From Escherichia coli (lineage in GTDB: Bacteria > Pseudomonadota > Gammaproteobacteria > Enterobacterales > Enterobacteriaceae), in the NCBI RefSeq assembly GCF_029227855.1, contig NZ_CP074357.1: a stretch of DNA of 64,000 nt; one strand, given 5' to 3'. Shown here in pieces: positions 30,871 through 30,899 of the stretch (its first letter is position 1; each line of letters opens with the position of its first letter). Under the pieces are notes generated by a model. The model was given only the letters and a program-made list of their open reading frames with translations, was not told the DNA's origin and made no database searches. The translations under genes and the position numbers were made by a program.

Positions 30871-30899
30871 TTGTTATGACTGTTTTTTTGGGGTACAGT
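30871..30899 (+). promoter_or_regulatory. P2 promoter activated by GGG insertion (TTGTTA - 17 bp - TACAGT)
   Basis: tttttttggggtacagtc here versus tttttttgtacagtc at 555-569. Confidence 0.75.

Follow-up and report, generated by a model that had tools for sequence, protein, structure and literature searches.

Two copies of the class 1 integron 5'-conserved segment (5'-CS) lie in a stretch of Escherichia coli DNA of 64,000 nt, here called the window, and the segment at 30871-30899 raises the question of whether the two copies differ in their cassette promoters, whether such a difference would separate the two cassette arrays in expression, and whether the two integrons arose independently. The whole window was 100% identical to positions 128,001-192,000 of an E. 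coli IncHI2A plasmid (NZ_MZ152088.1). It is highly probable that the window contains two separate class 1 integron remnants within an IS26-rich resistance region of an IncHI2 plasmid, each with Pc, P2 and attI1 intact and a short array of cassettes, IS26 having removed the 3' part of intI1 as well as the 3' end of the integron. The features are listed in table 1.

Table 1. Features of the two integron remnants and positions of IS26 in the window.
Feature	Position	Strand	Evidence
IS26 right end, cut by the window edge, truncating intI1 of remnant 1	1-95	+	100% identical to 29975-30069
ΔintI1 of remnant 1, first 148 of 337 codons (445 nt), start codon 540-538	96-540	-	NCBIfam NF011946 integron integrase, profile positions 2-148/337
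Pc of remnant 1, PcH1, TGGACA-N17-TAAACT without TGN; predicted sole cassette promoter of array 1	425-453	+	hexamers match PMC2791841 Table 1
Inactive P2 of remnant 1, TTGTTA-TGACTGTTTTTTTG-TACAGT, 14-nt spacer	544-569	+	14-nt spacer inactive according to PMC8876359
Intact LexA box CTGT-N8-ACAG over the PintI1 -10, copy 1 only	553-568	.	motif search of both copies
Remainder of 5'-CS and attI1 to the GTTA crossover, identical in both copies	570-679	+	blastn/MAFFT comparison
dfrA14 cassette ORF, first in array 1 (annotated TTG start at 696)	687-1169	+	NCBIfam DfrA1-like, 300 bits; AMRFinder dfrA14 100% in identical record
arr-2 cassette ORF, second in array 1	1280-1732	+	NCBIfam rifampin ADP-ribosyltransferase; identical record annotated Arr-2
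cmlA remnant, first 97 codons, cut by IS26	2053-2345	+	NCBIfam CmlA, profile positions 1-97/419; IS26 repeat from 2346
IS26 closing array 1	2346-3165	+	repeat comparison, annotation of identical record
IS26 truncating intI1 of remnant 2	29250-30069	+	repeat comparison, annotation of identical record
ΔintI1 of remnant 2, first 266 of 337 codons (798 nt), start codon 30867-30865	30070-30867	-	NCBIfam NF011946, positions 1-266/337
Pc of remnant 2, PcW, TGGACA-N17-TAAGCT without TGN	30752-30780	+	hexamer/spacer search
Active-type P2 of remnant 2, TTGTTA-TGACTGTTTTTTTGGGG-TACAGT, 17-nt spacer	30871-30899	+	function according to PMC2791841, PMC8876359
aadA22 cassette ORF, first in array 2	31016-31807	+	NCBIfam AadA family (aadA1-like); AMRFinder aadA22 100% in matching records
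lnu(F) cassette ORF, second in array 2	31939-32760	+	NCBIfam Lnu(F), 606 bits
50-nt piece between lnu(F) and IS26	32800-32849	+	sequence
IS26 closing array 2, followed by Δmef(B) and sul3	32850-33669	+	repeat comparison, annotation of identical records
IS26 copies and fragments, whole window	1-95, 2346-3165, 6719-7500, 24675-25494, 29250-30069, 32850-33669, 56908-57727, 58713-59532		

The common 5'-CS (copy 1, 96-679, 584 nt; copy 2, 30423-31009, 587 nt) was compared using blastn and MAFFT, the alignment proposed with the original prediction, and two differences only were found over the whole common stretch: exactly one mismatch and one 3-nt gap. The mismatch falls in the Pc -10 hexamer, TAAACT at 448-453 in copy 1 and TAAGCT at 30775-30780 in copy 2, and agrees to the base with what had been claimed. 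The gap corresponds to a GGG insertion in copy 2, within the G-run at 30890-30893, which gives the predicted P2 spacing of 17 nt as against 14 nt in copy 1. For the Pc motif search of the window, the number of matches expected by chance was 0. The TGN extended -10 was absent from both copies, the -10 hexamer being preceded by TCG in each. Copy 1 contains a complete PcH1 (TGGACA, N17, TAAACT, no TGN) without active P2, and copy 2 a complete PcW (TGGACA, N17, TAAGCT, no TGN) together with an active-type P2 in which TTGTTA and TACAGT stand 17 nt apart through the GGG; both had been named correctly. The PcW-P2 configuration of class 1 integrons reportedly goes back to Lévesque in 1994. Both 5'-CS copies were alike up to GTTA and diverged from the next base. 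An artefact of sequencing or assembly is an extremely improbable source of the GGG or of the G/A difference: the GGG does stand in a short homopolymer context (T7, then G4), but at least 46 independent plasmid records carried the PcW-P2/aadA22 sequence and at least 22 the PcH1/dfrA14-arr-2 sequence, the same GGG sequence recurred in dozens of plasmids that belong to several genera and were sequenced independently, and the GGG version is the classical published P2 sequence (PMC2791841).

Of the array names that had been given, dfrA-arr-2 stood and is more fully dfrA14-arr-2-ΔcmlA, whereas aadA2-lnu(F) is actually aadA22-lnu(F); aadA2 as the first cassette of array 2 was ruled out by the 100% AMRFinder match to aadA22 in matching records. 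In remnant 1 (IS26-ΔintI1-dfrA14-arr-2-ΔcmlA-IS26) the cassettes would be transcribed from PcH1, P2 having the inactive 14-nt spacer. In remnant 2 (IS26-ΔintI1-aadA22-lnu(F)-50 nt of 3'-CS-IS26) PcW is the weak variant and the GGG gives P2 its 17-nt spacer; inferred from the literature, P2, which lies about 117 nt before aadA22, would be the main start point of transcription. Published lacZ fusions rank the promoters as PcW < PcH1 (4.5x) < PcW-P2 (7x) < PcW-TGN-10 (15x) < PcS (25x), and in PcW-P2 transcription comes essentially all from P2 (PMC2791841). By analogy with these fusions, which carried the identical sequence, P2 of copy 2 would drive cassette transcription at about 7x PcW.

Since the published strengths are 4.5x and 7x PcW, both set-ups are expected to be of intermediate strength and to differ little, with a predicted difference of about 1.6-fold by which the aadA22 array would be slightly the stronger; this is smaller than the effects of cassette position or copy number. 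The earlier claim that expression strength should differ thus holds only weakly (about 1.6-fold, PMC2791841). Markedly different expression of the two arrays as a result of the promoter difference is unlikely. The two configurations truly differ, and promoter type is known to alter cassette expression and MIC (tobramycin MICs under PcW and PcS, for instance, differ 8-fold, PMC2791841), but the activities concerned are neighbours in the published ranking, at a ratio of about 1.6, and the two arrays carry different genes, so that phenotypes offer no direct comparison. Using a generic sigma-70 consensus scan (threshold 9), PcH1 was flagged at 9/12 matches, and PcW and P2, at 8/12 each, were below the threshold and remained unflagged. 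These misses reflect the threshold, not biology; with a score of 8/12 against a threshold of 9 the scan cannot judge P2 activity, the evidence for which comes from published work on a sequence identical to this one. Transcripts running on from the IS26 transposase gene, which lies upstream on the same strand, could contribute to the expression of both arrays.

Of the 337 codons of a complete intI1, 148 and 266 are left in the two remnants, both of which end at IS26. In both copies attI1 lies next to Pc with cassettes joined at GTTA. Neither array is followed by a 3'-CS (qacEΔ1-sul1), array 1 ending in cmlA at IS26 and array 2 keeping 50 nt. These 50 nt we take to be the beginning of the 3'-conserved segment, which IS26 interrupts within the classical (Lévesque) 3'-CS primer site. 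As both intI1 genes are truncated by IS26, neither remnant is autonomous or able to move cassettes alone. With no intact 3'-CS primer site in either array, both would be expected to escape standard 5'-CS/3'-CS integron PCR, as judged from the sequence and the primer.

The GGG also affects SOS control. The LexA operator motif CTGT-N8-ACAG was present in copy 1 and had no match in copy 2, where the box is broken by the GGG, which makes the spacing N11. Disruption of the LexA site by the GGG insertion has been described (PMC2791841, PMC8876359), and in copy 2 the insertion abolishes the LexA operator of PintI1. This loss of SOS control is without consequence there, because intI1 is truncated.

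The independent origins that had been claimed for the two integrons were supported, though by evidence other than the promoters, namely the IS26 cut points and the occurrence of the arrays elsewhere with complete intI1. The IS26 terminal repeat TTTGCAACAGTGCC ends at 95, placing the IS26/intI1 junction of remnant 1 at 95/96; that of remnant 2 is at 30069/30070. IS26 thus cut intI1 at different points, with 445 nt of the gene left in remnant 1 and 798 nt in remnant 2. The ORF translation of ΔintI1 of remnant 2 carries residues R32 and H39. The dfrA14-arr-2 array was found with complete intI1 and a PcH1/no-P2 5'-CS in at least 22 plasmids, mostly from Klebsiella and lacking the aadA22 array, and most of these had a single match place, that is, no second 5'-CS. 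For aadA22, the position behind PcW-P2 was the dominant form (at least 46 of the 60 best records), and many of these records had complete intI1 and a single match place, without the dfrA14 array. Separate origins are indicated by the existence of each array elsewhere behind its present promoter and a complete intI1. The alternative, that both 5'-CS copies came from one integron which was duplicated on the plasmid and then diverged in place by the G/A change and the GGG indel, would fit their 99.3% identity, their distance of 30 kb, their direct orientation and their position between IS26 copies. It is nevertheless very improbable and effectively refuted: copy 2 retains 353 nt more of intI1 and so cannot derive from copy 1, the cassette arrays have nothing in common, and each array, with its own promoter type and complete intI1, is carried by the plasmids described above in which the other array is lacking.

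The linkage between promoter and array was examined using chimeric queries. A strict tie was rejected, as dfrA14 and aadA22 each occurred behind several haplotypes. dfrA14 was present behind PcW in many records and behind PcW-P2 in one plasmid record found, pO189_X1 (NZ_MW077913.1). In this plasmid IS26 truncates intI1 at a position different from those of both remnants, and after dfrA14 come an unrelated cassette fragment, IS26, Δmef(B) and sul3. For aadA22, 2 records had PcH1/no-P2 and 4 had PcH1+P2; 6 records lacked the GGG and differed from the PcH1/no-P2 query by a single mismatch, and the four of these that were fetched proved to be PcW/no-P2. On IncHI2 plasmids, aadA22 modules sharing one and the same IS26 junction (682 nt between the end of IS26 and the Pc -35) occurred with all four Pc/P2 haplotypes: PcW+P2 in the window and most records, PcW/no-P2 in pf77-65 and two relatives, PcH1/no-P2 in pSG17-135-HI2 and PcH1+P2 in a plasmid of Klebsiella pneumoniae SEB229. 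The module of pSG17-135-HI2 differs from that of the window only at the two promoter sites, and the co-resident dfrA14 module is PcH1/no-P2, as it is in the SEB229 plasmid; the co-resident integron of pf77-65 (arr-2-cmlA5-blaOXA-10-aadA1-dfrA14) is PcW/no-P2. In pSG17-135-HI2 no second 5'-CS was present within 50 kb on either side of the aadA22 module, and it was found farther off, in inverted orientation.

In three of the three variant plasmids checked, all changed sites had the state of the co-resident integron, which suggests gene conversion: from the sequences of these three plasmids, co-resident 5'-CS copies on IncHI2 plasmids probably, though by no means certainly, exchange Pc/P2 states through non-reciprocal homologous recombination. 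The variant haplotypes could instead have come from recurrent mutation or from recombination in an earlier host. If gene conversion does operate, a plasmid lineage can retune cassette expression and SOS control without new mutation. With all four haplotypes found on the same IS26-bounded aadA22 module, the Pc/P2 haplotype is a poor marker of integron origin or lineage, and, being apparently exchangeable between co-resident copies, promoter type alone should not be used to infer integron ancestry.

The surrounding region was surveyed for repeats and resistance modules. Eight IS26 copies or fragments are present in the 64 kb, seven direct and one inverted, and the modules delimited by them comprise mph(A), qnrS1, blaCTX-M-55/TEM-1/LAP-2, aac(3)-IId, the two integron remnants, sul3, tet(A) and floR; otherwise near-identical plasmids differ in how the modules are ordered and oriented. 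The IS26 at 6719-7500 is intact for 782/820 nt and then abuts an ISKpn19-qnrS1 segment, and an isolated 14-nt match to the IS26 terminal repeat lies 2.9 kb beyond it, at 10370-10383. A perfect inverted repeat of 946 nt (11753-12698 and 23732-24677), with arms 11 kb apart, one beside qnrS1 and the other just downstream of blaLAP-2, brackets ISEcp1-blaCTX-M-55, blaTEM-1 and blaLAP-2, and may be a duplicated fragment left by inversion or insertion. A direct repeat of at least 300 nt with 98% identity (49853-50152 and 55341-55640, 5.5 kb apart) flanks tet(A)-tetR(A). Between two inverted IS26 copies, at 57728-58712, lies a replication initiation gene (about 58031-58759, minus strand, annotated in the identical record), the annotated end of which runs into the second IS26. 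It looks like a captured IncN rep remnant, since NZ_MZ152088.1 is typed IncHI2A and IncN.

Both IS26-bounded modules, including their junctions, were found at 100% identity in at least 30 large plasmids of IncHI2 size each, among the matches listed, and records covering at least 80% of the two modules numbered 270 and 115. Hosts of the identical modules were Salmonella, E. coli, Enterobacter and others. For a widespread type of IncHI2 multiresistance plasmid, the analysis assigns the resistance genes of the two arrays to their cassette promoters.

The promoter variants and their strengths, the side effect on LexA and the modules bounded by IS26 have all been described or abundantly deposited already, and the only mildly new angle is the apparent exchange of promoters between co-resident 5'-CS copies. 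Copy 2 has the hexamers, 17-nt spacers and GGG of the published PcW-P2, the site likewise lying just downstream of the start codon of intI1 and LexA being affected in the same way (PMC2791841); the promoter is no different, but the intI1 behind copy 2 is truncated by IS26. Copy 1 likewise matches the PcH1 of that study, with inactive P2, in its hexamers, spacing, lack of TGN and 14-nt P2 spacer, and differs in nothing but its intI1, cut to 148 codons; this configuration (TGGACA/TAAACT, P2 inactive) accounts for about 28% of class 1 integrons (Jové 2010, PMC2791841). The IS26-ΔintI1-aadA22-lnu(F)-IS26-Δmef(B)-sul3 module of pR18.0877_278k from Salmonella Goldcoast (NZ_CP037959.1) was 100% identical to the window over 2,815 nt, with both IS26 junctions and no difference, and in a few relatives the module has other Pc/P2 haplotypes. 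The dfrA14-arr-2-cmlA5-(blaOXA-10-aadA1) integron of K. pneumoniae NZ_CP030132.1 shares its PcH1/no-P2 5'-CS, dfrA14 and arr-2 with the window (1,990-nt query); integrons of this type have complete intI1, whereas in the window IS26 has left 445 nt of intI1 and interrupts the array within cmlA.
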